From: a virus
Direction: 5' to 3' (one strand)
DNA length: 64,000 nt
Virus record (IMG/VR): IMGVR_UViG_3300045988_132810
Location: 32,001 to 96,000 of that record
In this document: piece by piece, positions 1 to 64,000 of the stretch
How positions within the stretch are numbered: position 1 is the stretch's first letter
Layout: each line of letters opens with the position of its first letter
Translations under genes and position numbers: made by a program
Notes under the pieces: model-generated
Database searches by the model: none
Told to the model about the DNA's origin: nothing
Seen by the model: the letters and a program-made list of their open reading frames with translations, nothing else

Positions 1-161
1 GTTATAAGCAACCAATTGTACCAAAGCATGAAAATATGTTAATTTTCCCTCATACTATAGGTAATATTACATATTACAACAAAGAAGAATTGATTAAATG
101 GGTTGAAGACCAGCAGAAATTTAATAAAGATACCACTTATGGAGTAGGAAATTGGTGTTAA
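1..161 (+). CDS. hypothetical protein, 3' end (truncated by window edge)
   Basis: Frame 3 is open from the window edge to TAA at 159-161 (...TTYGVGNWC*). Same strand as the downstream early genes. No motif recognised. Confidence 0.3.
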   Translation, partial: YKQPIVPKHENMLIFPHTIGNITYYNKEELIKWVEDQQKFNKDTTYGVGNWC

Positions 162-195
162 ATAACAAATAAAAATATATTTTTAAGGTGAATGT

Positions 196-510
196 ATGGA
201 ATTGTTTAAAAAAGCATTTAGAAAGAATATGGTGACTCTTCAAAAGTTTAAGCCTATTTTTACTACTGTAGACGGTCATAGGCATACTGGTTTTGAATAT
301 AATTATGGAATTGTAGAAAAATTGCTGTGTAGTGTTCCAGAATATATGATGATTGATATTAAAAGTGATGGTTACTTAGAAGATAATTGTGGGGTAATGT
401 ACCCGCTGGCAAATATTGTGTCGATTGATTGGCAACTGGTAGACGAAAAAAAAGTAGAGGATAAATTTGGAGAATATCAAATTTTCGTAACAACAAAAGA
501 TGTAGAATAA
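196..510 (+). CDS. hypothetical early protein
   Basis: 104-aa ORF with AAGGTG upstream of the ATG, packed tightly with its neighbours. Confidence 0.6.
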   Translation: MELFKKAFRKNMVTLQKFKPIFTTVDGHRHTGFEYNYGIVEKLLCSVPEYMMIDIKSDGYLEDNCGVMYPLANIVSIDWQLVDEKKVEDKFGEYQIFVTTKDVE

Positions 511-535
511 ATATGTTAAATATATGGGGGAGTAT

Positions 536-757
536 ATGAAAAATATAACTTTCGAAGAAATGTTAAATATGGAAGTGCAAGACTTGTTACATGGTTATCC
601 GTCAGGCGGTTATACATATTATTATAAAGATGGTGATGGCGGGTATCATGAAATTGTTGAATTGGATCTGTTGCGTGGTAGATTTGTGACGGATGACGGT
701 GACTTCTCAGAGTTTGAATGGGAGCTTAAAGAGAGTCATATTTACATAGATGAATGA
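536..757 (+). CDS. hypothetical early protein
   Basis: ORF 524-757. The internal ATG at 536 is preceded by GGGGGAG, so I prefer it as the start. Confidence 0.55.
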   Translation: MKNITFEEMLNMEVQDLLHGYPSGGYTYYYKDGDGGYHEIVELDLLRGRFVTDDGDFSEFEWELKESHIYIDE

Positions 758-792
758 TAAAAATTACATTTTAATATAAGGAGTTAAGGTAT

Positions 793-936
793 ATGAATAA
801 GAGTGCATGGTGGGCATGGGCAATCAGAAATAGCGTATGTGTAATTTGCTGGACTACTCTTGCGATTGTTTTAACAAGTGGTGGATATGTCTTTTCTCCA
901 TGCTATTTCTTTGTTCTCTCCAGACTAACACTGTAA
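793..936 (+). CDS. small hydrophobic protein (47 aa)
   Basis: AAGGAG lies 8 nt upstream of ATG 793. Product MNKSAWWAWAIRNSVCVICWTTLAIVLTSGGYVF... has one predicted TM-like stretch. Below the ORF-track size cutoff. Confidence 0.4.
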   Translation: MNKSAWWAWAIRNSVCVICWTTLAIVLTSGGYVFSPCYFFVLSRLTL

Positions 937-1094
937 AGGAATATTGTAGAATTTGCGACAAATGCGGCAAGCATAGTGAATATGCAGATAGCTACGATGC
1001 AGCATTAGACAAGGCGAAGAAAGCAGGATGGATTCATTATGCAGATGGCAATAAAGATTATTGCCCAGAATGTAAGGACAAATTAGACGAATAA
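900..1094 (+). CDS. small zinc-ribbon-like protein
   Basis: The C-terminal part of ORF 837-1094 has CRICDKCG...CPEC (two CxxC pairs). The start is uncertain (ATG 837 or 900) and it overlaps 793-936 in another frame. Confidence 0.4.
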   Translation: MLFLCSLQTNTVKEYCRICDKCGKHSEYADSYDAALDKAKKAGWIHYADGNKDYCPECKDKLDE

Positions 1095-1104
1095 GGAGTA
1101 ACTC

Positions 1105-1293
1105 ATGGATCTTGAAAATTATTTTGTGAAAGCGGTTGAAGAGTGTAATATGACCAAGCCTTTAGAAATTCTTAATTGGTATCGTAATCTTTATTATAAA
1201 GAAGAAGTACATACCGAGCACAGAATCATGGCAGAGGCCATCAATAATTTGTTTATGGAATATAAGGACGTATTTTGCGACGATGAGGAGTAA
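1105..1293 (+). CDS. hypothetical early protein
   Basis: 62-aa ORF with AAGGAG upstream. Confidence 0.55.
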   Translation: MDLENYFVKAVEECNMTKPLEILNWYRNLYYKEEVHTEHRIMAEAINNLFMEYKDVFCDDEE

Positions 1294-1297
1294 AGTT

Positions 1298-1465
1298 ATG
1301 ACAGACAATAAAGAATTTGCAACATGTAGCTGTTGTGGAAAAACTGTTCAACAAGGTGATATGTATTTCGAGGCAGGGTTTTTTGACAGATATGAAATTG
1401 TAGATGGCGAATATGTATATAAAGGATACGCGGTTTGTGAAGATTGCCATAATAACGGCAAGTAA
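1298..1465 (+). CDS. hypothetical Cys-rich small protein
   Basis: ORF 1283-1465. ATG 1298 follows GAGGAG. Contains CSCCG...CEDC. Confidence 0.5.
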   Translation: MTDNKEFATCSCCGKTVQQGDMYFEAGFFDRYEIVDGEYVYKGYAVCEDCHNNGK

Positions 1466-1493
1466 AAAATAGAATTTATGGAGAAAAAATTGT

Positions 1494-1838
1494 ATGGATT
1501 ATGAATTTCATGTAGGAGATTATGTTGAAACAAAGGATGGCACCATTGGTTATATCAGCTCTGTACGTGCCACTGGTGATGTATTGTGGATGTGTACTAG
1601 CGATGGCCATGGTTATCATGCAGGTCAAGAATATGGGATTATGCATAATGTTGATTTTCCTTATTTCTATAACCGTATTGGCCAGTACACTTTTACATAC
1701 CAAGACAAAAAGCTTAAAAAGTTGACAAGTTATGGTTGGAATATGGGCGTATCTGGCGATGATCTTATTTTAAAAATCAACGAACTTATAGATGCTGTAA
1801 ATGAATTGAGGGATAAAAATGACAGGCAAGCAAAATAA
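1494..1838 (+). CDS. hypothetical early protein
   Basis: 114-aa ORF, the longest in its region, on the same strand as its neighbours. Confidence 0.6.
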   Translation: MDYEFHVGDYVETKDGTIGYISSVRATGDVLWMCTSDGHGYHAGQEYGIMHNVDFPYFYNRIGQYTFTYQDKKLKKLTSYGWNMGVSGDDLILKINELIDAVNELRDKNDRQAK

Positions 1839-37850: not shown

Positions 37851-38163
37851 CGATCTATTACTTTCCCACGAAAACCAAATGGTACTGACCGATTATGTAA
37901 TCGGCGGCAAGGTCTTTCGGCCTTGCTCTACGATTTTATTTTTAGATTATTGTCGTAGTCTAGACTGGATCTTCACCCTCATTCCCGTCATTATACGGAG
38001 TAGGGGAACAGCGGAACCTGTTATGTTACCATAAAAGGTCTTACAGTCGTTACGGATACTTTGCACACTGCAAAGTCTTTCCTCGGTCTTGACCATCTCT
38101 GGCTTTTAACCGATATAGCTGTTTTCTTTCAATATATTACTATATTGTTAGGCTATTATGTTA
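37851..38163 (-). ncRNA. putative ORF-less group I intron in the tape-measure gene (313 nt)
   Basis: Excision gives ...VVQNPESVG|TAMKTLSLRIRG in frame. The exon ends in U and the intron ends in G. 5-bp P1 UAGGU/GCCUA with U.G at the splice site. The 3' end AGTAATAGATCG|ACAGC nearly matches that of the CotH-gene intron. Confidence 0.8.
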
Positions 38164-41100
38164 ACCTACAGATTCTGGATTTTGCACAACGCTATTGGCG
38201 GCTGTAATTAACCCAATAGACTCATCAAGTGTATTGCCAGCCTCTGCCATAGCACTAGCAGAACGCAATAGCGCTTGTCCAATACCTGATGAACTGATTG
38301 CAAAGTGGTTTCCCACCTCGTTGAATTTATCTACGATTCCCATAGCATGAGACGCTTCAATACCAAATCCGTGCATTGTAGAAATGATACTGTCAGAAGC
38401 CTCACCAATATCGGCTAGGTCATCACCAACGTTATAATAAACGGAAGCGGCCTTTGCCAAGTCAGATGCTTGTTCAATGTTATATCCTAACCTTGCGAAA
38501 TCTGCTGTAGCATTAGTAAAATCTTTAACGGTAGAGCCGATCTGCCCAGCAGTTTTAGACGCATCTTGTAAGAATCTCTTATAACTTTCATCAGTTTCGT
38601 CAGTAACTTTTTTCAGTTCAGTTAACGCTGCGTCAATTTCTCTTACATATGTAATACCTTGCTTAATTTGAGCAACAGTTTTATACACCATATTTGCGCC
38701 AGTAAAGTATGTAAGAATTTCACCAGACTTTTTCTTAACATTGCTAAAGAAAGAGCCAAGCGTACTACTTGCTTTGCCCATATTCTTAGCGGAAGCATTA
38801 ATAGCATTTCCCGCTTGATTAAACGATGCAGTTAGTTTTTCTACTTCGCCATTGCCATTCTTTATTGTAAAAGTAACCTTGGAATAGTTGTCAGCGAACT
38901 GAATAGATTTTTTATCTAACCCATCAAAAGAATTAGCAAATGCTTCTAATTCACTTCTTCTGCTTGCTTCGTCGCCAATATCAAAGCCATCAGAGACTGC
39001 ACGAGTGATATTACCAACTTTGTTTTTCATCTCTTCGGACTTCTTAATGATATTTTCAATTGCTTTGCCATATTTATTAAATGACTCAACTGCACTATCA
39101 AACTCTGCGGCCTTTTGCTTACCCAAATCCGAAGTGATGTCTATGTTTGCAAGCTCTTTTTGAAGTGTAATTATTCTTTGATATGCTTGCTCGTATTGCT
39201 GTAATTGAGTAGTAACCCCGGAGGCATTGGCATAGCCTTTGCTATTAACGCTATTAATTAACCCAGTATGCTTTGTTTCGACTTGTCCGACAACATCTGC
39301 CCCATACAAAGTATTGTTTTGCTTTGCTGAGTCCTTCTTTACCTTTGCGTACTGTTCAAAATCGCTCATGAGCTGCTTTGTCGCAGCACTCAACCTTTGC
39401 ATGTCATCTTCTGACACTTTACCAAAGGCTTCTTCGGACTTTGTTAGATCTTGTATCTCCTTTGATAGAGTTTCATATCTACTCTTTAACTGGCCAAGAT
39501 CACTATCTTTATCTACGAAGACTTCCGTATCAATTTTCCTAAAAGCAGAAGATAGCTTTTGATTTGCATCTATTAATGTTTTATAATTGTCTAGTTCTTT
39601 ATAGCTGTCGTTAGAACTTTTAGAACTACTAGAATGAGAAGTTATCCCTTTTCTTGTGCCCTTGCTGGAATCAGCTTCATTTCCAAGTGATTCAGCAGTT
39701 TTATCCGCGCTATCTTTTACATTTTGGTTTGCATTAGCAAAATCATTTTTCGCTTGAGTGGCTGACGCGAAAGCCTCGCTCGCTTCTCTCGCCTTTTCTA
39801 TTTCTTTTTCTATAGCAACCGCAGAAGCTTCCGCACTTTCCTTAACTCGTGCATTAGCTTCAACAAACTGATTTTTTTGTTCCGTCGCCGCCGCAAATGA
39901 TTCCTGTACACCACTAACGCTGGCTACTTCGGGAGCAGTCGTTGCAGGATCTCCTGTATTTTGACCATTAGCAATCTCACCAGTTGCTGTCTTCGAAACC
40001 TTTGACGCATCGCTCTGATTTTGTTTTTCTTTTTCTTTTGTAATTTGCTGTTGCGTTTCCAATTGTTGCTTTGCTTCTTCATTTTGTTGTTTCTCTACTG
40101 CCAACTCTTGCTCTGCCGCATCGGTGCCTTTTTGCTTTGCTTCTGTCGCACTACCTAATTGTACTTTTGCTTCAGCAAGCTTGGTTTTTAATTCATCAAT
40201 TACAGAAGACAAATTTTCAATTTTTGCTCTATATTCATCTACGACATCATTTGAAGTCATATTATCGACTTCGCTCATCGGGACAGAATTATCTAGAGCA
40301 TTTTGGATGTCGTAATAACTATTCTTCCACGAATCTAAAGCACCTTCCATACGAAGGATTTCTTCTTCCAATTCTTGTACTTGTTTTTGTGCCGCGTCAA
40401 GCTCGGAAGCGTCAACAGGATTTGTCGGAATAGCATTTAATTTTTCTTTAAGAGCGGCAATTTCTTGCATAAGCTCTTTTTCTTTTTCAAGCTGCGCGGT
40501 TTGATTGTCCATTTGATTAGACTGAGTTGAAGGCTGCCCAGACTGAATCTGATTAAGCTTTTCTTGCGCGGTAGTCTCCTCGTTGATAGCCTCAGTAGTT
40601 TTTTGATGTGCTTCTGCTGCTTGCGCTTCGATTTCCTTAATTCTAGCTACGCTTTGATTCCAAGCATTAGTAGAGTCAATTTCTCCACTCTCGAACGAGC
40701 TAAAAATATCTTTAAACTTGTCCCAATCGGCGGTGTGCGATGGATTTAATGTTGCCAATAAACTTTTTAATTTTTCAATTGGTGCAACAGAATTTTCTCC
40801 ATTCTTTTGTATTTCGGCTAAATAAGATGACAACTCTGGTAGCTGTTCCATTGTATATGTCTTAACAGTCGAAGCTAACCCATTGTCTGTAAACGCCTTA
40901 TCTAGGGCTTGATTGACTTTTTCATTAAACGCAGCAATCAACTGTTCATATGAAATGCCCGCTTGCGCCGCTTTTTCTTCTGCTCCTTTTATTAATCCAA
41001 CTTCTCCGTCATTATATTCCATCAGAGGAAATTCTTTTGTAGCTGCTTTTAAATTTTGAGAGTAAGATTCTCCAATTTTGATGGCCATTTCTTTAGAAAT

Positions 41101-42840
41101 GCCAGTAAAATCAATTGTTTTAACAACGCCATCTGCAATGATACCATTAATTTTTGTGCCTTGGTCATAAAACAACTTGGTAAATGAATTAATATCCGAC
41201 GGCGTAAATGCACTCATTCCATCTGGGTGATTGTGCAAAGACATTACGATATTTTCTTTTAGATTGTTGACAAGTTGTGATACTATTGCGTCTGTATCTA
41301 CCTGAAAATCCTTCCCAGAAAAAGAACTTACCACTTTGTCCGCGCCAAAAAGCGTCATAGACTCTTTTGCGTCGCCGCTACCTTTTGAATAACCAACCTC
41401 TTGCCCCGACGCAACATTTAATAATTCTTGTAGCTCGCCAGTTACACCGCTAACTTCTTTTGCGCTTTTTTGTGCAGCCGTAGGAATTTCAACATTAAGT
41501 AGCTCACAGATTTTAGAAAGTGCTTCGGCTCCGGTAATGTCTCCAAAGTCTAAATCTGAAAAGATCTGTTCAATTGCAGTCCCTGCCTCTTTAGACGCCT
41601 GAGAAACTTCTTTAATTTCATCGACAAGTGCCATTAACTTCTCTTCGTTTTGGGCCCCTTCGTCTGTCCCTGACAATAACGAGACATATTCTTTAACTCT
41701 TTTATTTAACTCATCATATAAAGAAATCTTTTTTTCTTCCGAAGTTCCATTTTCTTTTTCTACAAAATCATCTGGATTTTCAATGTTTTTAAGGTTGTCT
41801 ATTTCTAAATTAATATCTGCAATTTTTTGCTTATACTCGCTCTTTATCTTTTCAAGCGTAGCATTCTGCTTTGCTCTAAACTCTTCTAAAAACTCTTCGG
41901 CCCTATCATATTCTCTAGAATTTGCAGCATATGCCGTAGCGTCATCGCTACCATGCTCGAACACATAATCCATTGTGCTCTTTAACTGGCTTGCTGCCTT
42001 TATTTTTCTTACAAAAGCTTCTTCTTTCCCTGACTTGCCAGTTCTCTCTAATTCCGCAAGTTCTTGCTCTGCTTTTTTAAAATCTTCAACAAGGCCAGCT
42101 AGAACAGTAGTATCATTTTTCTTTGTTGTTTTTACTCTTTTGTCTTTGCCATTAAAAATGTCTAATGCTTCTTGATATCTTGCCTTTTGTTTTTCCAGTT
42201 CATCAATTTGTCGTTGAACTTCTTCGGAAATTTTATTACCTGCATCTTTGATATCGCTAGACACTTCATCCCCAGCAGACTTGATATTATCTCCAACTTT
42301 AGATAAATCAATCTCGCCAAATGCGATATTTAATTTACCATTTAACTCGCTGGCATATTGGATTAATGCATTAAACTGTTCTTCAACACTTTTAGTGTTA
42401 AAAAGGTCTAAGTCAATTTGTTTATCAATGCCAACGTTCTTGAGGATTGTATTTAATTGCTCTGCGTAGCTCAGTAATTCTTTCGTCGCACCTTTGTCTT
42501 TTAAATTAACACCACTAAGCCCAGTAAAAACGTTTTTAGACAACTCTGAAATCTGAGACATCTGTTCAACCATTTTATCAAAAGACTTCATATATCCGCT
42601 ATTAAGCTTATCTCCAAGACCTGCTTTGACGGAATCCAAATCTTTCCTAAGTGCCTTAACAGCATCGTCCATAGCGACAAACTGCTTAATAAAATTATTA
42701 AGATTTCCACGCTTGCCAATGTTTGCTAAAACTCCATCCACCTGTTCAGCTTGAGTCTTACATGCAACAAGGCTACTCATAAGATCATCAATACTATATT
42801 TAATTTTCGAAGTATAACTCGCTTCTGCCAAAAGAATCAC
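38164..42840 (-). CDS. tail tape-measure protein, exon 1
   Basis: 1559 aa, mostly coiled coil. Ends with the first half of the tape-measure core (...FAISSSGIGQALLRSASAMAEAGNTLDESIGLITAANSVVQNPESVG). Has an embedded JAB/MPN-like motif HNHPDGMSAFTPSD. Confidence 0.85.
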
Positions 42841-44639: not shown

Positions 44640-45587
44640 TTAACTGTATAGAGCATCTACTCTGTTTTGTACTATTTGATAGTCATATCCCGCTGCTTCA
44701 AGGCGTGCTTGACGTTCTAAACCATTTCCCCATTCGCCTTGATATACCTCCAATACAATTTCATCTAATGTTTTACCTGAAGCAACAACTGATTCCGTAT
44801 TTGGAACAAGAATCTTTTGTCCTATATAAATAACATTAGGATCAGAAATTCCATTGTAGGAAGCAAGTTGTTGATATGTAATGCCATATTTTGTGGCAAT
44901 GTCAGAAAGAGTGTCACCAGATTTTACAGTATAAACTGTTTCTGTTTGACTTTGCGAAAAAGTTAATCCATTTTTACCAGCTTCTCTAATCAATGCAGGA
45001 TAATCAAAATAAGAAATGTTCATATCAACGCACCCAGAAATACCATTGACAATTCCAGAACTAGAATACTGCCAAATTCCATAGTCCTTGTTATACTGAC
45101 ATTCAGAATTATATTGAGCAATCCATCTTGCCTTAGTGTCATACCAAGAATCAGTCAGATATGCCTCATTCCAATATAAATTGGCATAAATACCAACCCA
45201 ATAACCAGCGTCTTCTAAAATGCCAACAAATTTTTTAGACATTTGAAGAATTAAATCTTGACTACATTTCCCAGTAGTATTAACGTCTTCTAAATCATAA
45301 TAAACGGGATATTCAAGTTTACGACCTTTTATCAATCTAAGTACATGTGTTGCTTCCGAAGCAGCTTTTTCTACTGTATCTGCATAACTGTACAAATACA
45401 CACCATAAGGTATACCAACTCTTTCGCATTCTAAAGCATTCCTTTTAAACCAAATATCATCTTGTTCTTCTAAGTTCATTCCATAGCCACAGCGAAGAAT
45501 TGCAAAATCAATTTCATCCTTTTTTACTGCATCCCAATCAATTTGTCCTTGCCATTCGCTCACATCAACACCTTTTAATTTTTTCAT
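44640..45587 (-). CDS. endolysin: GH25 muramidase with LysM and Cpl-7-like wall-binding modules
   Basis: GH25 start [31 protein letters not shown]. Lys[31 protein letters not shown]-terminal [31 protein letters not shown] (Cpl-7-like). Confidence 0.9.
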
Positions 45588-45605
45588 ATTATCCCTCCTT
45601 TTTGT

Positions 45606-45642
45606 CCATAAAAAATGAGGGAGTGTATTGCTACACTCCCTC
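45606..45642 (-). terminator. rho-independent terminator
   Basis: Perfect 11-bp stem GAGGGAGTGTA/TACACTCCCTC with a 4-nt loop, followed on the - strand by ATTTTTT. Confidence 0.65.
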
Positions 45643-45682
45643 GCCCATATAACTACTTCATATAGGCTATTTGTTTATAAAA

Positions 45683-46609
45683 TTAATTCTCTTTATTGTC
45701 CGTACTATGATTAGAATCAAACATTCTCTGACAGACAACCAACATGCGCAGCATATCATATGATATATCTAGTTTGCCATTACCAGTGCCAGCAATTGCA
45801 CCAGTGTCGATTAAATGCTGCACGGTGTCACGCGCCCAAGATGGGATATCTTCGATTGTCTCATAATGCTTATTGCATGCATCAAACATATGCTTCATGA
45901 CATACAGCATACGTATCATATCAGCAGACAAATCAAGATTGCCTCCACCAGTGCCAGAAATTAAACCTTCATCAATCATATCACTAATAGTTTCTCTTGC
46001 CCAGCTAGGGATATCATCAATAGTATTGTATCTCATTACGTCTTCCTCCTCTTCATCATTTCCATTATTTTTGTTCATGGCCTCATATACATCCTGACGG
46101 AACCCGTCCATAGTGTAACCCATGCCATATGTATTCCACAGAAGTTCTGGATCCGCATGGTTGCTGGCCACACCTCTACGATGACCTTCTGCATGACCAA
46201 TAATCACACCGTCTTCCAGTGGATTAAGCCCATAAGTGTTGCAAAGCTGTGCGAATAATTCCACGGCTGTGCGATATGTCCCAGCAATCTGTTCAGCAGC
46301 TTCCGCATAACTCATTCTAGAGCTAGGTTCCGTCATTTCGATGCCGATATGGGTATTATTTGCAGCGCCACCGCAGTGCCATGCTCTCATCCACCAAGGC
46401 AATGTCTGATATACAGAGCCATCTGCCTGTATAAATGCGTGTACGCAAACTGATTGACCACCCGGCTGATACTGGTTGAAGTTGCGAGCAAACACCGCAG
46501 CACTAGGCTGTGGGCATCCAACGCTATGCAACATCAAACCACTTGGAGTAAGTGTCGAACCAATCTTATAACATTTATTTTGTGTCGCAAACGCTTCAAT
46601 AATTTCCAT
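45683..46609 (-). CDS. endolysin: N-acetylmuramoyl-L-alanine amidase (amidase_2/PGRP type) with two SLH-like repeats
   Basis: HSVGCPQ...VHAFIQ...RAWHCGGAANNTHIGIEM amidase_2 pattern. Two C-terminal repeats of about 45 aa (DIPSWARETISDMIDEGLISGTGGGNLDLSADMIRML and DIPSWARDTVQHLIDTGAIAGTGNGKLDISYDMLRML). Confidence 0.85.
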   Translation of the reverse strand: MEIIEAFATQNKCYKIGSTLTPSGLMLHSVGCPQPSAAVFARNFNQYQPGGQSVCVHAFIQADGSVYQTLPWWMRAWHCGGAANNTHIGIEMTEPSSRMSYAEAAEQIAGTYRTAVELFAQLCNTYGLNPLEDGVIIGHAEGHRRGVASNHADPELLWNTYGMGYTMDGFRQDVYEAMNKNNGNDEEEEDVMRYNTIDDIPSWARETISDMIDEGLISGTGGGNLDLSADMIRMLYVMKHMFDACNKHYETIEDIPSWARDTVQHLIDTGAIAGTGNGKLDISYDMLRMLVVCQRMFDSNHSTDNKEN

Positions 46610-57640: not shown

Positions 57641-60600
57641 TTAAATAGAAATACATGGACAAATACCATGAGCTCTGTTAGATGGCATATAGCTACTCAT
57701 ATCACCCTGAATGCCAACCGCTCTAAAGTAAGAATTGTACGCCACTTCTGGTGAACGTAGATAATATATGCTCGCAGTATCCCCAATAGACTTAACTCTA
57801 TCTGCAGATGAACCAAAGAATTCAATTGCTTTACCTTCGGAGCTATATGGCGCTTCGGATGTGTTAAACATTTCCACATACGACGGTAGATATACATAGT
57901 CTTTTGAATAAACAATATCAGATGCCATATTACCAGCGGTTGCAGGAATCTGCACTTGCTTAATAATTGATTTCCACTCTGTTGGGAAAGCCGCATAAAC
58001 TCTACTATTACAGAACGCTCTCATTTTAGAGTCATTCCATCCGCCAAGGTTGGTGTTCGTAGAATTCATATTGTGAGTGAGAGATAGCAAATTCGCCGGA
58101 ATGAACGAAGCTCCAGTAATTTTACTAGAATCTTGCGCACATCTATATCTCTTATCACCATAATATTCATAGCGCCAAGTTTCATGCGGCCATGCAGCAA
58201 GCTGTCTAGCCGCAGTGTCTCCAATATCATCAAGCCATACTTTGGCCCAGTGAATTGTGCCCTTACCTAGCGTTACGCTATCAATTGTTCCATTTGACAG
58301 GAACTTAAATCCACCAAGCATAATTGTCGCCTCAGTATTAGTTGTACGATTGCGCACAAGCTCTGTATAAGCCATTTCGTCAGCATAAACACCAGTTGTA
58401 GAAGCTCCAGAGTTAAACGAGTAGATATAAAGTTTACTTTCTCCCTTGCGGTGACGAAGCACAACGATATCTCTTTGGCCTCCTTTGCCTACTACTTTAC
58501 TAGTATTTCCCCACTGGATTTCTGGATTTGTACCATTATACTTTAGTCTAAATCCTTCAGAGCCATCATATTCAAAGCAAGACAATAGCGTAGCATCAGC
58601 GATATTGTCGCCAAACTCAAAATCTATAGCCATTGTAAATGAACCAGAATCTGCGCCAAATAGCTTAACGCCAGAATCTACTACTTTTGAGGAAGTGCCA
58701 TCAAAAGTAATTTCATCTCCAAGCATATGTTCTTCAACATTTGAGAACGAGAAATCCTGCCCAACACGGACGTCAAAATAGTCTTTCTGCTCGAAATAAT
58801 CATTTGCTCTCCCAGCAGTTGTTACGGCATAAATCTGTACTGGAGTCATATCTTTCAAGTCAGTTCCAGATGCTGGGAGCCCATTTTGTGTCTCCCACTT
58901 AGCATAGACGTCAGTATCTCCAGTGATATAGCCTGTGCTCTTATCCCAGCCAGTGAATAGATTATAAATATAAGAATCCTCATTATCGCTCATAGTTGGG
59001 TTGTCGCCTTCATATTCCGCAACAGCACCATATTCTACGCCAGTTTTAGTCGCAAGAACAACGCCTGCTTGCTGGAACCAACGCACAGTATATGTTCTTA
59101 CTGACTCGCTATATTTTGCTGTCACAGTTACAGGAGCAGTAACATTCACATCAATGCCATCCCAGCCAGAGAAGGTATAATTGTACTGTGCGGTACTTGG
59201 AATTGTCGGAGTGTCAATTTCACCACTTGCGACAGGATCAGTAATCTTGCCGCCTTGGTCAACATACTGAACATAATCATTGCCACTCTTGTCTTTAATA
59301 GCAGTACCATCGGAATTCATAAACGTCACTTTATACTGAGTAATAATACCATTATAAGTGACAGCTAAATCAGGCCATGCTGCCGCATAAGCATCGAGTT
59401 CTCTCTGCCTTGCTTGGCCAGCAATATGAACCTTACCAGCAAGTAAATTGTTATTCATCTTCAAAATAGCATTTAACAATTCAGTGCTTGTCACAGTCCA
59501 GTCAATGCCAGTTAAACGAAGTGTCTGCAACGTGTCAATTGCATCCTCAACAATTGGATAAGCATCAATTACAGAGTTCTCAATAGTTAACGATTCAAGA
59601 TTGTCATATGTCGCCTGTAAATCGGTTAAGTAATTTAGATTCTTAAAGCTTAAGCTATTGATTGTATTTGGTAAGTGAGCAAGTGCAATCTTACCATTTG
59701 CCGCGAATAGCACACCAGTTACAGATGTCCCCTCTGCATAAAGCTTCTCTAAGTTGCCACAGCTTGACAGATTGATCGATCCAGTCAATTTAGGGCAATT
59801 ACGAATGTCAAGTTCTTCAAGTAACGCATTGTTGCCAAGGTTTAGATTGGTTAAGAATGCATTAGAATAACCAGAAGTTTTATTGCCAATTACAAGCGTC
59901 TTAAGCTTTGAAGCCTTACTAAAATCATTATCGTGAATATAGCAAGCAGAAAGATCATTCAATGCCTGAATGCGAGAAGCACAATAAATTAGTACTGCCG
60001 TATCATCCATCTTGGTAAATGGACATTGAATTTCATAAGATTGTCCTGCCTTTGCACGAATCTGCTGTGCACTTGGAGAGTTGCCAAATAGCACAGACAG
60101 ATACATATCTGAATAAGGCACAATGTTTAGAGTGTAATTAGGTGCAACAACTACACCAGAAGGAGTATTGCATCTAAACATAATTTGATCTGCCTTGACA
60201 GTTGTAGACAGATATTTCGTTCCCATATAAGCCGCTTGGTCACGTTCAAATTGTCTACGCTGATATTTCTTACGACCATTCATCATAGACTCTAAGAAAC
60301 GAGGCGTTGGCTCTGGAGTTGCACCAGCATTGAGGCCACCACCTTGATATGTCCTGTAATACTTACGCTCAATATCAAGTCTCCAAAGCTCTTCTGGGAA
60401 TTGTGCTTGCCAATTGTCAAATTCATTAATTAGAGATGTTGCACTAAAGCAACCTTCTCCTTCAAGAGTTTGATACATTACTGCAAGCTCATCGTGGAAT
60501 AAATCACGTATCCTACACCAAAATACATTGTCTGCTGCATTAAATATATAACCCGAAGATTTATCGCCTTCGGTGCGATAGTCAGTGTCTTCCTTGCCAT

Positions 60601-60643
60601 ATGTCATGGTAAGCTCGCCACTGTTGTTAATTCCAAGGGCTGT
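57641..60643 (-). CDS. giant CotH-domain / LRR / B-repeat / LamG-like protein, exon 2
   Basis: Begins TALGINNSGELTMTYGKEDTD, completing the CotH WDYD..G motif. Followed by leucine-rich repeats (LEELDIRNCPKLTGSINLSSCGNLEKLYAEGTSVT...), B-type repeats (YKVTFMNSDG..., YTFSGWDG...) and a LamG-like segment. Confidence 0.85.
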   Translation of the reverse strand, partial: TALGINNSGELTMTYGKEDTDYRTEGDKSSGYIFNAADNVFWCRIRDLFHDELAVMYQTLEGEGCFSATSLINEFDNWQAQFPEELWRLDIERKYYRTYQGGGLNAGATPEPTPRFLESMMNGRKKYQRRQFERDQAAYMGTKYLSTTVKADQIMFRCNTPSGVVVAPNYTLNIVPYSDMYLSVLFGNSPSAQQIRAKAGQSYEIQCPFTKMDDTAVLIYCASRIQALNDLSACYIHDNDFSKASKLKTLVIGNKTSGYSNAFLTNLNLGNNALLEELDIRNCPKLTGSINLSSCGNLEKLYAEGTSVTGVLFAANGKIALAHLPNTINSLSFKNLNYLTDLQATYDNLESLTIENSVIDAYPIVEDAIDTLQTLRLTGIDWTVTSTELLNAILKMNNNLLAGKVHIAGQARQRELDAYAAAWPDLAVTYNGIITQYKVTFMNSDGTAIKDKSGNDYVQYVDQGGKITDPVASGEIDTPTIPSTAQYNYTFSGWDGIDVNVTAPVTVTAKYSESVRTYTVRWFQQAGVVLATKTGVEYGAVAEYEGDNPTMSDNEDSYIYNLFTGWDKSTGYITGDTDVYAKWETQNGLPASGTDLKDMTPVQIYAVTTAGRANDYFEQKDYFDVRVGQDFSFSNVEEHMLGDEITFDGTSSKVVDSGVKLFGADSGSFTMAIDFEFGDNIADATLLSCFEYDGSEGFRLKYNGTNPEIQWGNTSKVVGKGGQRDIVVLRHRKGESKLYIYSFNSGASTTGVYADEMAYTELVRNRTTNTEATIMLGGFKFLSNGTIDSVTLGKGTIHWAKVWLDDIGDTAARQLAAWPHETWRYEYYGDKRYRCAQDSSKITGASFIPANLLSLTHNMNSTNTNLGGWNDSKMRAFCNSRVYAAFPTEWKSIIKQVQIPATAGNMASDIVYSKDYVYLPSYVEMFNTSEAPYSSEGKAIEFFGSSADRVKSIGDTASIYYLRSPEVAYNSYFRAVGIQGDMSSYMPSNRAHGICPCISI

Positions 60644-60916
60644 CGATCTGTTACTATATAGGCTTGGCCCTATATTATGACTTACATTTCTGTAAGCGGA
60701 GCAGGTTCTTCTTTAAGCGGTCTGATTACCGTTGACCCACTCTCTGCAATTTCATTATTAGATTATAGTTGCAGTCCAGACTGTTGCATACTTCATAACT
60801 CGCGTCACAAAGCCCTTTGTACTCAGTCGTTGCAGGCGGAAAATTTCCTTCCTGAGCGTTGCCAATCTCTTGGTTTTCGCCATTAATCAACAAAGGTTTT
60901 ACAACGACAAAATTTT
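60644..60916 (-). ncRNA. putative ORF-less group I intron in the CotH-like gene (273 nt)
   Basis: Excision gives FELWDYDND|TALGINNSG in frame. The exon ends in U and the intron ends in G. 6-bp P1 AACGAU/GUCGUU with U.G at the splice site and an 8-nt loop. It shares a hairpin and its 3' end with the tape-measure intron. Confidence 0.8.
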
Positions 60917-63900
60917 ATCGTTATCATAGTCCCACAGCTCAAAACGATATTTACCATCTACACATTTAGCATAATGATAAAAAGAATTTTTCGCTCTGTT
61001 ATCGATCATAGTATATCTCTCAGTGAACACATACCAATAAAGAGCAGAATCTTTGATTACCCAATTATCAAGCTGTGTGACAAACTCTTCATCAGTAGAA
61101 GTAATTACCCATTCATAGAAATCACGCCACACCTGCTTGTTCAATGCTCTTTGTGCCTCTTGCTCTTCTGTAGTGGCAGTTGTCATTCCATCCTTCGTTT
61201 CGCCACCCATTTCATAGCGGAACTCGAATGAACCATCCCAGTCATTGTAAAGAGCGTCATAAGCAGTGTTACCAGCCTTCCACTGTTCTTTCGTGATAGG
61301 ATAAGTCATATTACCATCGCTGTCGGTTACACCAGTTTGGAAAGTACTGTTAGGTAGAGTATTGTCACTTACTTCAATGACAAACTCTTTTAGGTCAGAG
61401 ACATCATTGACTCTGGTAGCATCGGTTTTTTTTGAATCACCAATATTTCCCAGCCCGTAGAAGTGCCAATCATTATCCTTAAATTCCATATGTTTAGAAA
61501 CATCAGGATCGGTTTCTTTAATGAACACTACGCAATTTTGGAACTCCATGCTATTCTTACACTTTGGATCATTTTCCATAGCAACAGTTTTATATGGCAG
61601 ATAGTCATTATAACGCTTCTGGAGCAATGCGTTATTTGCATTTTCAGAGCTTGCGATATTCAGCTTGATGTTCCACCAGTTGTTTGGCACAGAGTTCCTA
61701 GTCAAACTAACCTTACCAGAACCATCAGAATACTTTGTTCCATCTCCAAGAATAAGCTCCGTTACATAACTCGTATCCAAAGGAATCTTGCTGATAATCT
61801 GCTTCTTGCCATCAGCACAAGCAATAATATCAATATTTCTACCAGCGTAACCATATTCGTTAGAAGTCGTTCCCTGTCCAGAAAGATAAGTGTTCATGAA
61901 CTTCCAGTTATCTAGCACCGGGTCTCCACCCTTATAGATGCATTCGACATTTACGCCTTTTACAAAATCTTTTTTGTCCTTAGTAAAACGAGGACACTCA
62001 ATCTTAATAACTCTTAACTGTGGGCATGCATTTGCCACAGATTCAGGAGTTAGCGCATTATTTTCGTTATAAATCTGATTACGATTATATCTTGCAATCA
62101 TCTCATCAGAGTCTCTTGCATCAGCAACGAAGTTTGACAAAATGTTAGAGTCAGTCAGTGAAGCACTATAAGCCTTCATCCTATAGATGTGAACATCACA
62201 ATCTGTAGAACCAATAGTAATAGGCACTGGCTCGTACTGATATAGTCTATGCGTTGAATCGTAAATCATAGGTCTTAGACCAACACCATCTTCATAGCTC
62301 ATAATGACTGCAGTCGCATCTGAATTGTCCTTATCAATTGTATTAATATTGAACTCAAATTCAATAATATCTTCCTCGCTATAAGGAATATATAGACTCT
62401 TAATACTAGACTTCAAATACGCCTCATGAACATTCATTTGCAGGCCCACAACAGTAGAATCTGCTTGGCAAGTCAGGAATGTTGCATTTGCATTACTAAC
62501 ATTCGTAGTTTTAAAAACGCATTTAAATTCAGAACCATAAACACTTGCGTCTCTCTCAAAAAGCTTATAATTGATAGTGGCAGTTGTTCCAGCCTTAACA
62601 CAGAAATACTGGTTGCCATCTTCGTCAATCTGATAGCCGCCATTGCTCCAGTCGAAGTTATTTGAAACTGTCATTGCAACATCAGTGTTTGCGTCTTTCC
62701 ACAGTCTGTCTTCATCGCTATTGGAAAGGCCAGTAGGATTAAAGTCAAATGCCAAATTTGCAGTAATTGGCTCGATAGTAATACCGAGCTCCTCAATATT
62801 CATAATAATTTTAACAGTTGTGTCTCTGCAAGTAATGAGCAAAGTATGTTCACCAACATCAGAAGATTTATATGCCCAGACATCAGAATTGCCACTCATG
62901 ACCTGAGTCGCAACAACTTTGCCGTCAACACTTCTTGTAACAGTCGGAGTTGCCGTCTTCGGGTCATAAACATAGAACTGAATATTCGTTGAATTATACT
63001 GTTTGGCAGTTACTTTACCATAATGGTCATATCTATAAACGCATCCGATAACAGGAGCATCACCATTCTCGTCATACCACATAATGTCCTTGAAGATATG
63101 CTCAGTTTCAATGCTTTTACTATTAATCGTTGCTGTAATATAGCACTCAAATAAATGCGCACCATGGGCCTGAGCTGGAATTGTATAAGACTGCAATGTA
63201 CCAGAGGAACCAGTCGAAACAGTTCCAATTTCAACACCATCAAGCACAAAATGCACAGTTTTATTTACTGCGCCATATGGAGTGTATGTGAAATTGACAA
63301 CACTATTTGCCTGATATGTAATCTTATCATTAAACGAAGATTCGAGTCTTACGTCTACCTTTTGCACAGTCCAAGACTTAACAGCAGTAGTGCCAGCAGC
63401 ATCCACAACAGTCAACGTAAACTTCTGAGTGCCAATATTGGTGTAATCAGACATATCAAACGTATTCACGCCCTGCACTAATGCACCAGTTGATAGAACA
63501 GTGCTACCAGACTTCCAAGTGTAAGTGCCATCCACAGCTTCTCCATCACTATCCACTGAAGAATAATTAAAGCTAATCTCTACCTTATCTGTCGTAGTAA
63601 CAATAACTGGAGATTCAGTAATACGCTCGACTTTAAGAGTAGTAGTAACAGTAGAACCACCGCCACCACCAGTAATTACGAATTGGCTCTTTACTTCTTC
63701 TTTTTCATCTTTAACTTCGTAAAGTGTAAAAACATTCTCTTTCTCTTCGCCAGTTGCTAGAGTAGCATTTCCATATGTAGCATAGTATGTATAACCTTCT
63801 GTGTCGATACCGTCAACGGTTTGTCTTAGCGTATCAATATTTCTACTTAGAGAAGCAATGTTTGTCGTGTTTGCTTCAATGTTTTGTGCGTTTGTGTCTA

Positions 63901-64000
63901 CAGATGCCTTAAGTGTAGAAACCTTGCTGTCAATTTGAGACTTTGTATAATTGTCTCCCCCGATAATGCAGAACTCATCATTAATATAGCGATAATGCAC
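60917..64000 (-). CDS. giant CotH-domain protein, exon 1 (5' end outside the window)
   Basis: Open to the window edge. N-terminal coiled coil, Ig-like and LamG-like regions, then the CotH-type core ending ...KNSFYHYAKCVDGKYRFELWDYDND (compare B. subtilis CotH HNYALYRS..FEVIPWDYDATWG). Confidence 0.8.

Follow-up and report, generated by a model that had tools for sequence, protein, structure and literature searches.

We propose that the 273 nucleotides at positions 60644 to 60916 on the minus strand of the window, which is the whole 64,000-nucleotide stretch of viral DNA analysed here, are a group I intron without an open reading frame (ORF) that interrupts one very large tail-region gene. We put the probability of this reading, splicing included, at roughly 92%; the splicing itself we infer from the sequence. 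The source is a gut phage of roughly 150 kb, and its host is probably in the Clostridia. The interrupted gene and its parts are as follows.

60644..60916, minus strand: predicted intron, 273 nt, group I, without an ORF (intron position p = 60917 - window coordinate)
60917..64000, minus strand: exon 1, N-terminal repeats and first half of the CotH-like domain, up to ...FELWDYDND; its 5' part lies beyond the window edge; phrog_14959 profile positions 465-1154
57641..60643, minus strand: exon 2, starting TALGINNSGELTM... and including the stop codon; second half of the CotH-like domain, a leucine-rich-repeat-like region and a C-terminal DUF6273; phrog_14959 profile positions 1663-1993

Boundaries of the insertion and the restored reading frame

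Exon 1 ends with GGT AAA TAT CGT TTT GAG CTG TGG GAC TAT GAT AAC GAT (GKYRFELWDYDND), and translation would then enter the insertion through AAA ATT TTG TCG TTG TAA, that is KILSL followed by a stop codon at 60901-60899. At the other end, the insertion finishes with ...AACAGATCG (also ...CAGATCG), its last base being 60644, and exon 2 begins with ACA GCC CTT GGA ATT AAC AAC AGT GGC GAG CTT ACC ATG, where the codons ahead of the ATG at 60607 translate to TALGINNSGELT. Cutting out 60644-60916 on the minus strand fuses ...FELWDYDND with TALGINNSG...; the predicted spliced junction joins GATAACGAT to ACAGCCCTT (in longer form, TATGATAACGAT to ACAGCCCTTGGA) and predicts the peptide ...WDYDNDTALGINN..., which spans the junction across DND-TAL. 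According to the ORF list and its translations, both exon frames are open for ~1,000 codons each.

The ends of the insertion carry the marks of group I splice sites: the last base of exon 1 is U, the last base of the insertion is G, and intron nucleotides 9-14, GUCGUU (60908-60903), can pair with exon AACGAU (60922-60917), the pair at the junction itself being U.G. Other junctions were considered and rejected: shifts of -3, -1 or +1 nt break the invariant D-T join, and joining at any other point within a few bases fails to recover the conserved protein sequence. The sequence-only reading, from which this analysis started, had described the intron boundaries and the frame, the exon-final U and intron-final G, and a 6-bp P1 with U.G at the splice site, all of which are present exactly as described in the minus-strand sequence; its proposal that removal of 273 nt restores WDYDND/TALGINN is likewise upheld by a join that is free of gaps against uninterrupted homologues.

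Uninterrupted and interrupted homologues

A 403-residue spliced query run against a large protein database returned 117 relatives. The spliced sequence aligns without a gap across the join with the uninterrupted proteins P0001 (94% identical), P0002, P0004, P0006 and others, and the two residues that flank the join, D194 and T195, are invariant in a 10-sequence alignment. At the DNA level, at least 26 intron-less contigs in IMG/VR (L002-L027; 64-166 kb, 85-97% amino-acid identity) read uninterrupted through the site, as ...GAT AAC GAT ACA GG... or as ...GAT AAT GAC ACG AG.... Many database homologues, on the other hand, end at this very place with tails of the form DYDND+(R/K)xLSL and a stop codon, the tails of truncated homologues being DYDND-RNLSL, -RILSL, -RVLSL and -KLMSL, each before the stop; many phages are therefore interrupted at this one site.

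When the closest intron-less alleles (L002-L010) are compared with window positions 60905-60925 and 60630-60643, synonymous differences cluster at the insertion site (AAT GAC ACG AGT in these alleles versus AAC GAT ACA GCC in the intron-bearing sequence). Such clustered changes could reflect co-conversion or a site that resists homing.

Host gene and the CotH-like domain

Both exons match one PHROG (14959), over the two intervals listed above out of 2494 profile positions. The giant gene is followed by genes for tail-fibre and tail proteins and then by two endolysins. The latter form a pair of adjacent lysis enzymes at window positions 44640-46609 (minus strand), one of the amidase type and one an endolysin with LysM-like repeats, and they lie between the tail-fibre cluster and a tape-measure-like gene, which is an unusual order for a tailed phage. 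Among deposited phages there is a single relative, a 1,673-residue protein of phage NatCom_3357 (assigned to Ca. Heliusvirales; human faeces), whose gene is separated by two short ORFs from those for Dit and a hypothetical protein of 800 residues further upstream.

The sequence-only reading had further suggested, as a check, that the Pfam CotH profile (PF08757) should run through the junction, and this is borne out, as only spliced sequence scores above the cut-off. Exon 1 alone reaches 17.3 bits, with an alignment that ends at profile position 213, and the exon-2 ORF alone gives no match to this profile, whereas spliced fragments of 403 and 216 residues score 27.5-28.7 bits (cut-off 23.8), with a single alignment that passes unbroken through the junction at about profile position 214. 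An 806-residue spliced construct and the two separate ORFs gave no match to Pfam CotH, and the negative for the 806-residue query is not trustworthy given that the shorter spliced fragments pass. An AF2 model of the spliced domain (pLDDT 78.7, pTM 0.80) retrieved the B. cereus CotH kinase structures 5JD9/5JDA first in Foldseek (E 1.2e-4, probability 1.00; TM 0.41-0.46 over 306 columns); these were its only significant PDB match, the next one having E >1. Searches of the PDB with sequence profiles (alignments A1 and A3) found nothing.

Within the domain, D166, N171, D192 and D194 are invariant, and D192/D194 follow the D-x4-N element by 26-28 residues. The activity of B. subtilis CotH depends on D228 and D251 (PMC7821199). 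Because the D166-x4-N171 element and D192/D194 are invariant and these two CotH residues are needed, it is plausible that DYDND, at which the intron is inserted, is a metal-binding or catalytic motif that corresponds to B. subtilis D251, with D-x4-N corresponding to the catalytic loop (D228).

Predicted structure of the window intron

The structure that we read from the window sequence is listed below in the order of the transcript; the helix names P9.1 to P9.3 were coined in this analysis.

60903..60922, minus strand: P1, exon AACGAU with guide GUCGUU (intron 9-14), loop AAAAUUUU, U.G at the 5' splice site
60899..60901, minus strand (intron nt 16-18): in-frame UAA within J1/3 GUAAAA, which ends exon-1 translation of unspliced RNA
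60890..60896, minus strand (21-27): P3 5' strand CCUUUGU; 7/7 pairs covary, 99.4% paired
60855..60881, minus strand: P4 (36-39/59-62) enclosing J4/5, P5 and J5/4; covariation, RNAalifold
60833..60854, minus strand (63-84): P6/P6a hairpin; in relatives its L6 loop holds homing-endonuclease ORFs, 270-1200 nt
60824..60828, minus strand (89-93): P7 5' strand GACUG, inside conserved CAACGACUGAG
60814..60820, minus strand (97-103): P3 3' strand ACAAAGG, crossing P7 to form a pseudoknot
60791..60812, minus strand (105-126): P8 hairpin, 9 bp, GCGA loop
60779..60790, minus strand: J8/7 UAUGCAA (127-133) and P7 3' strand CAGUC (134-138)
60744..60774, minus strand (143-173): P9 hairpin with conserved loop UAUAAUC...AUGAAA
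60656..60742, minus strand: 3' peripheral domain with P9.1, P9.1a, P9.2 and an optional P9.3; covariation, RNAalifold and single-sequence fold
60644..60644, minus strand (intron 273): terminal G (omega-G) at the 3' splice site

The J4/5 segment is AAAA, P5 (44-47/52-55) is closed by a GAGA loop, and J5/4 is CAA; J4/5 is of the GAAA type in relatives and J8/7, UAUGCAA, is invariant, both read from sequence. J3/4 is unusually long (8 nt). In the peripheral domain, P9.1 (175-181/212-218) encloses P9.1a (184-188/197-201) and the invariant UAAAGAAGAAC, and it is followed by P9.2 (221-236, GAAA loop) and P9.3 (242-261). P2 is absent from the structure of the window intron, as are P7.1/P7.2 helices, nor could a convincing P10 with the 3' exon be made out. 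A 2-bp P9.0 between the invariant bases U139-G140 and C267-A268 is possible. One pair of the peripheral helix P9.1a, intron 185/200, is A-U in relatives but mismatched as A.C in the window copy.

The UAA directly follows the guide sequence (window 60899-60901, minus strand). Since it is inside the conserved J1/3, it recurs at this site wherever J1/3 is GUAAAA, which applies to all but one of the copies checked.

The intron family and covariation

Homologous inserts at the same site were found in three contigs with truncated proteins (1,049, 1,038 and about 560 nt). A pattern search with two invariant blocks (CAACGACTGAG...TATGCAACAGTCTG) yielded 34 more loci in IMG/VR, the same block pattern found 4 loci in Clostridia genome bins, and a family profile was run with nhmmer for further members. 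One architecture is common to about 40 related insertions from viral contigs, namely P1 with U.G, a P3/P7 pseudoknot, P4-P5-P6, P8, P9, a P9.1-P9.3 domain and a terminal G. In these relatives, the conserved AG[UC]AACA...G motif stops exactly where the conserved exon-2 frame resumes; their 3' ends were located by a pattern that requires the final G, so the G alone is not independent evidence there.

The 5' splice site could be followed across the family in a separate table of exon and guide sequences, from which P1 was judged because MAFFT had split its 6-nt exon strand in the alignment. At all but 2 loci the guide stands a fixed 21 nt before P4 and can pair with the final 5-7 bases of the exon, placing a U.G at the splice site; in one of the exceptions (L090) the script found no P1, and in the other (L119) the pairing was read by eye with the spacing off by 1-2 bases. 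At least 7 distinct exon/guide pairs occur (AACGAU/GUCGUU, AUGGAU/GUCCAU, AUGGGU/GCCCAU, GUGGGU/GCCCAC, CAGGCU/GGCCUG, AACGGU/GCCGUU and UUGGGU/GCUCAA), all of them complementary and all keeping the U.G. An eighth, UUGGCAU/GUGCCAA at a second site in the gene (site B, described below), was missed by the script and found by eye.

Covariation was scored for the structure read from the window sequence, in an alignment (A2) of 22 distinct sequences from which the variable L6 inserts had been taken out. In A2, 93.4% of cells are paired as opposed to 71.7% in shuffles, 53 of the 68 pairs show compensatory change on both sides, none of 500 shuffles reached any of five covariation measures, and when partners are slid by 1-3 columns only 34-46% remain paired. 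Changes on both sides are spread over the core (P3 7/7, P6 6/6, P8 7/8, P9 5/6) and the peripheral helices (P9.1 7/7, P9.1a 4/5, P9.2 5/6). P3 (21-27/97-103) crosses P7 (89-93/134-138), and a P3/P7 pseudoknot is the defining feature of group I introns. P7 is invariant in A2 and is only weakly tested, because 4 of its 5 pairs never vary and both of its strands are part of the pattern that fetched most relatives; in two members found only by profile, L114 (a site-B intron) and L122, the terminal P7 pair changes from G-C to A-U. RNAalifold, without any structure input, recovers P1, P3, P4, P5, P6, P8, P9, P9.1 and P9.2, and the minimum-energy fold of the window intron alone contains the same helices (-73.2 kcal/mol, z = -3.2). 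Compared with its closest ORF-less relative, L120, the window intron is 93% identical as against 86-87% for the flanking exons, and the differences between the two in P8 are compensatory.

With P1 and its U.G, the terminal G, the P3/P7 pseudoknot, P4-P6, P8, P9 and covariation all in place, the sequence-only reading was right to call the insertion a group I-type intron. The search with the Rfam group I model that it had suggested as a check, in contrast, came out negative. RF00028 (Intron_gpI) gave no match at E<=10 on 301-nt or 801-nt stretches in Rfam cmscan, which returned chance snoRNA-like matches only, no match on the whole window at the gathering score, and none on 7 relatives at E<=1. 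We read this failure as a sensitivity limit of that model and not as counter-evidence, because the defining structural features are borne out by covariation. Among 50,697 deposited phage genomes, neither the region with the host gene (megablast) nor the intron (blastn) had a match at this level of sensitivity, and the family is, as far as these searches reach, known from metagenomic viral contigs and Clostridia metagenome-assembled genomes (MAGs) only.

Further insertion sites

The window contains a second member of the family.

37851-38163, minus strand: second related group I intron, predicted, 313 nt, splitting a tape-measure-like gene; nhmmer family profile E 2.4e-7

Its exon 1 (ORF 38161-42840) ends ...NPESVG before a stop, its exon 2 extends from 37850 (beginning TAMKTLSLRIRG) to 30054, P1 pairs exon UAGGU with GCCUA, and the 3' end is AGUAAUAGAUCG. 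Spliced in silico, the tape-measure-like protein has ~4,150 residues, and alignments to the tape-measure proteins of Brevibacillus phage Sundance and of Enterocloster phages run unbroken across the fused junction.

In the gene for the giant protein, two family introns may stand as little as 14 nt apart, as they do in L112 (about 550-920, minus strand) and L114 (about 100-1500, minus strand), with a micro-exon ACAGCACUUGGCAU, coding TALGI, between them. In the downstream intron of such pairs, at site B, the guide GUGCCAA faces exon UUGGCAU; L119 has this intron too. Site B also fits the ending ...DTALGI+KC and a stop that is seen in many database proteins. The same gene is interrupted in P0117, P0082, P0054, P0028 and P0037 at query residues about 40, 104, 158 and 178-185, and one interruption, at L082 1582-2500, holds an HNH/NUMOD4 ORF. 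On the strength of these positions, the CotH-like domain appears to be a hot spot for introns.

Members with different exon and guide sequences were found in other genes (L087, L090, L091, L097, L098, L099, L103, L104 and L116); L103 has a second copy at the contig end, and L087, L097 and L098 have large insertions in the 3' peripheral domain. The family pattern is also present in Clostridia-binned contigs (L121-L124), from bins assigned to Waltera intestinalis, Faecalimonas sp., an uncultured Clostridia bacterium and a dairy-cattle colon MAG, and one of the four contigs, 162 kb long, probably represents the phage itself. There are hints here of Lachnospiraceae hosts.

Probable mobility

The L6 loop of relatives encodes endonucleases of several types, namely GIY-YIG with NUMOD1, HNH with NUMOD4 and an I-HmuI-like domain, and LAGLIDADG, along with weaker candidates of a PD-(D/E)XK/DUF559-like type and a zinc-finger DUF4379 type; in L086 the loop holds the decayed remnant of an ORF. 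The variety of L6 ORFs, taken with the intron-less alleles, has the look of the familiar cycle of invasion, decay and loss. The two marks of homing, an endonuclease ORF in a peripheral loop and the coexistence of intron-plus and intron-minus alleles, are both seen in the family, which is presumably mobile, but not in the window copy, as there is no endonuclease ORF in it or in L120. The intron would thus belong to a mobile family whose members at the same site carry homing-endonuclease genes in L6, while the window copy itself would be a structure-only intron that has lost its ORF or never had one, and that would depend for its spread on an endonuclease from a co-infecting relative.

Alternative explanations

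Could the insertion be a group I intron that no longer works properly, so that splicing is inefficient and the gene is impaired in this phage? The absence of an ORF and the A.C mismatch in P9.1a (185/200), where relatives have A-U, would fit such decay. However, the mismatch is peripheral and no core helix is damaged, the intron has diverged less from L120 than its flanking exons have and its P8 changes are compensatory, and both exon frames have been kept intact over ~1,000 codons each; we therefore regard degeneration as quite unlikely. Slightly less likely again is an insertion that does not splice at all, for example a miniature transposable element or other selfish DNA, which would leave two separate proteins or a dead gene. 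In its favour, exon 2 has an ATG of its own 12 codons past the junction and RF00028 does not recognise the insert. Yet those 12 codons match the conserved TALGINNSGELT, the insertion separates two invariant residues within a single domain, and neither a target-site duplication nor terminal inverted repeats are found at the insertion. Moreover, the same interruption recurs, with intact exons, across phages of 40-97% protein identity, and covariation helix by helix is needless for an element that acts at the DNA level.

Splicing by another kind of element is scarcely credible. Group II introns have GUGYG...AY boundaries and six domains including domain V, and are usually >400 nt long, and this possibility has nothing positive to recommend it, being considered only since RF00028 misses the insert; at 273 nt, with ends AAAAUU...AUCG instead of GUGYG...AY, no match to the Rfam group II models, and the group I topology with its P3/P7 pseudoknot, U.G in P1 and terminal G, the insertion does not resemble one. 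Equally hard to believe is that the interruption is overcome at the level of translation or of the protein, by a ribosomal hop or an intein. In favour of this, the length of 273 nt is a multiple of three, but an in-frame UAA stands at intron codon 6 with more stops in the same frame, no intein motifs are present, and a hop to the GAU near the 3' end would put the ribosome in the wrong frame. The known case of translational bypass, phage T4 gene 60, spans 50 nt, and the insert is ~5 times that gap.

Proposed mechanism and implications

The group I reading implies the following course of events. The transcript would fold into a group I core, in which P1 presents the 5' splice site as a U.G pair against GUCGUU and the P3/P7 pseudoknot, P4-P6 and P8 make up the active site. 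An external guanosine would attack after the U of GAU, and the freed end of exon 1 would then attack after the terminal G (60644), so that ligation restores ...WDYDND-TALGINN... and permits the synthesis of one protein of >2,000 residues with a CotH-kinase-like domain. RNA that escaped splicing would give a truncated exon-1 product ending KILSL and a stop. It is by analogy with established group I introns that we infer catalysis and splicing in vivo.

The finding leaves the known workings of group I introns unchanged; its importance lies elsewhere. Gene callers split a gene of >2,000 residues into two “hypothetical proteins” and thereby miss its CotH-like domain, and the tape-measure-like gene in the window has the same annotation problem. 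RF00028 gives no signal for this family, common as it is in gut viral contigs; censuses based on RF00028 therefore undercount phage introns, and alignment A2 could seed a new model. Within the family, moreover, the gain, decay and loss of endonucleases at a single homing site can be followed as a clear natural series, and the kinase-like domain of a tail-region protein emerges as an apparent intron hot spot.

Perhaps, and we would offer this as a speculation with the odds against it, the window intron typifies an as yet uncatalogued lineage of group I introns, marked structurally by the lack of P2, a minimal P5, a nested P9.1/P9.1a with the invariant UAAAGAAGAAC junction, and invisibility to RF00028. 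If so, the lineage would have colonised several virion genes of roughly 150-kb gut Clostridia phages, at two or more sites 14 nt apart in the CotH-like domain, in the tape-measure gene and in other genes, and it would have hosted at least four or five families of homing endonucleases.

Comparison with known systems

The domain that the predicted splicing restores resembles the CotH kinases (PF08757; 5JD9/5JDA) in passing the Pfam cut-off, in its predicted fold and in the invariant D-x4-N followed by Asp residues. It differs from them in an identity of ~10% and a TM score of 0.41-0.46, and in being embedded, as predicted, in a phage tail-region protein of >2,000 residues.

Group I introns of phages are known from the td, nrdB and nrdD genes of T4, from Bacillus phage SPO1 and from Staphylococcus phage Twort (subgroup IA2). 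Like these, the window intron interrupts a conserved site of a phage protein gene and has U.G in P1, a terminal G and the P3/P7 pseudoknot, and its family often carries an endonuclease ORF in a peripheral loop while ORF-less copies exist as well. Its P7 strands (AACGACU.../...AGUCUG, then CUGCA... of P9) also resemble those of td (AACGACUAU and AUAGUCUG CUCUGCAUG). In contrast to these introns, it has no P2, no P7.1/P7.2 between P7 and P3' and a minimal P5; it possesses a conserved nested P9.1/P9.1a with the invariant junction described above, and RF00028 is blind to it.

Phage group I introns are already known from structural and tape-measure genes. In Firmicutes, they have been described in structural, lysis and tape-measure genes of both phages and prophages, the Bacillus cereus group being one example (PMC2504315). 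The introns considered here resemble those in their location in virion and late genes, including tape-measure genes, in their Gram-positive hosts and in their probable spread by homing endonucleases. What sets the window intron apart from them is its host gene, which encodes a giant protein with a CotH-like domain.
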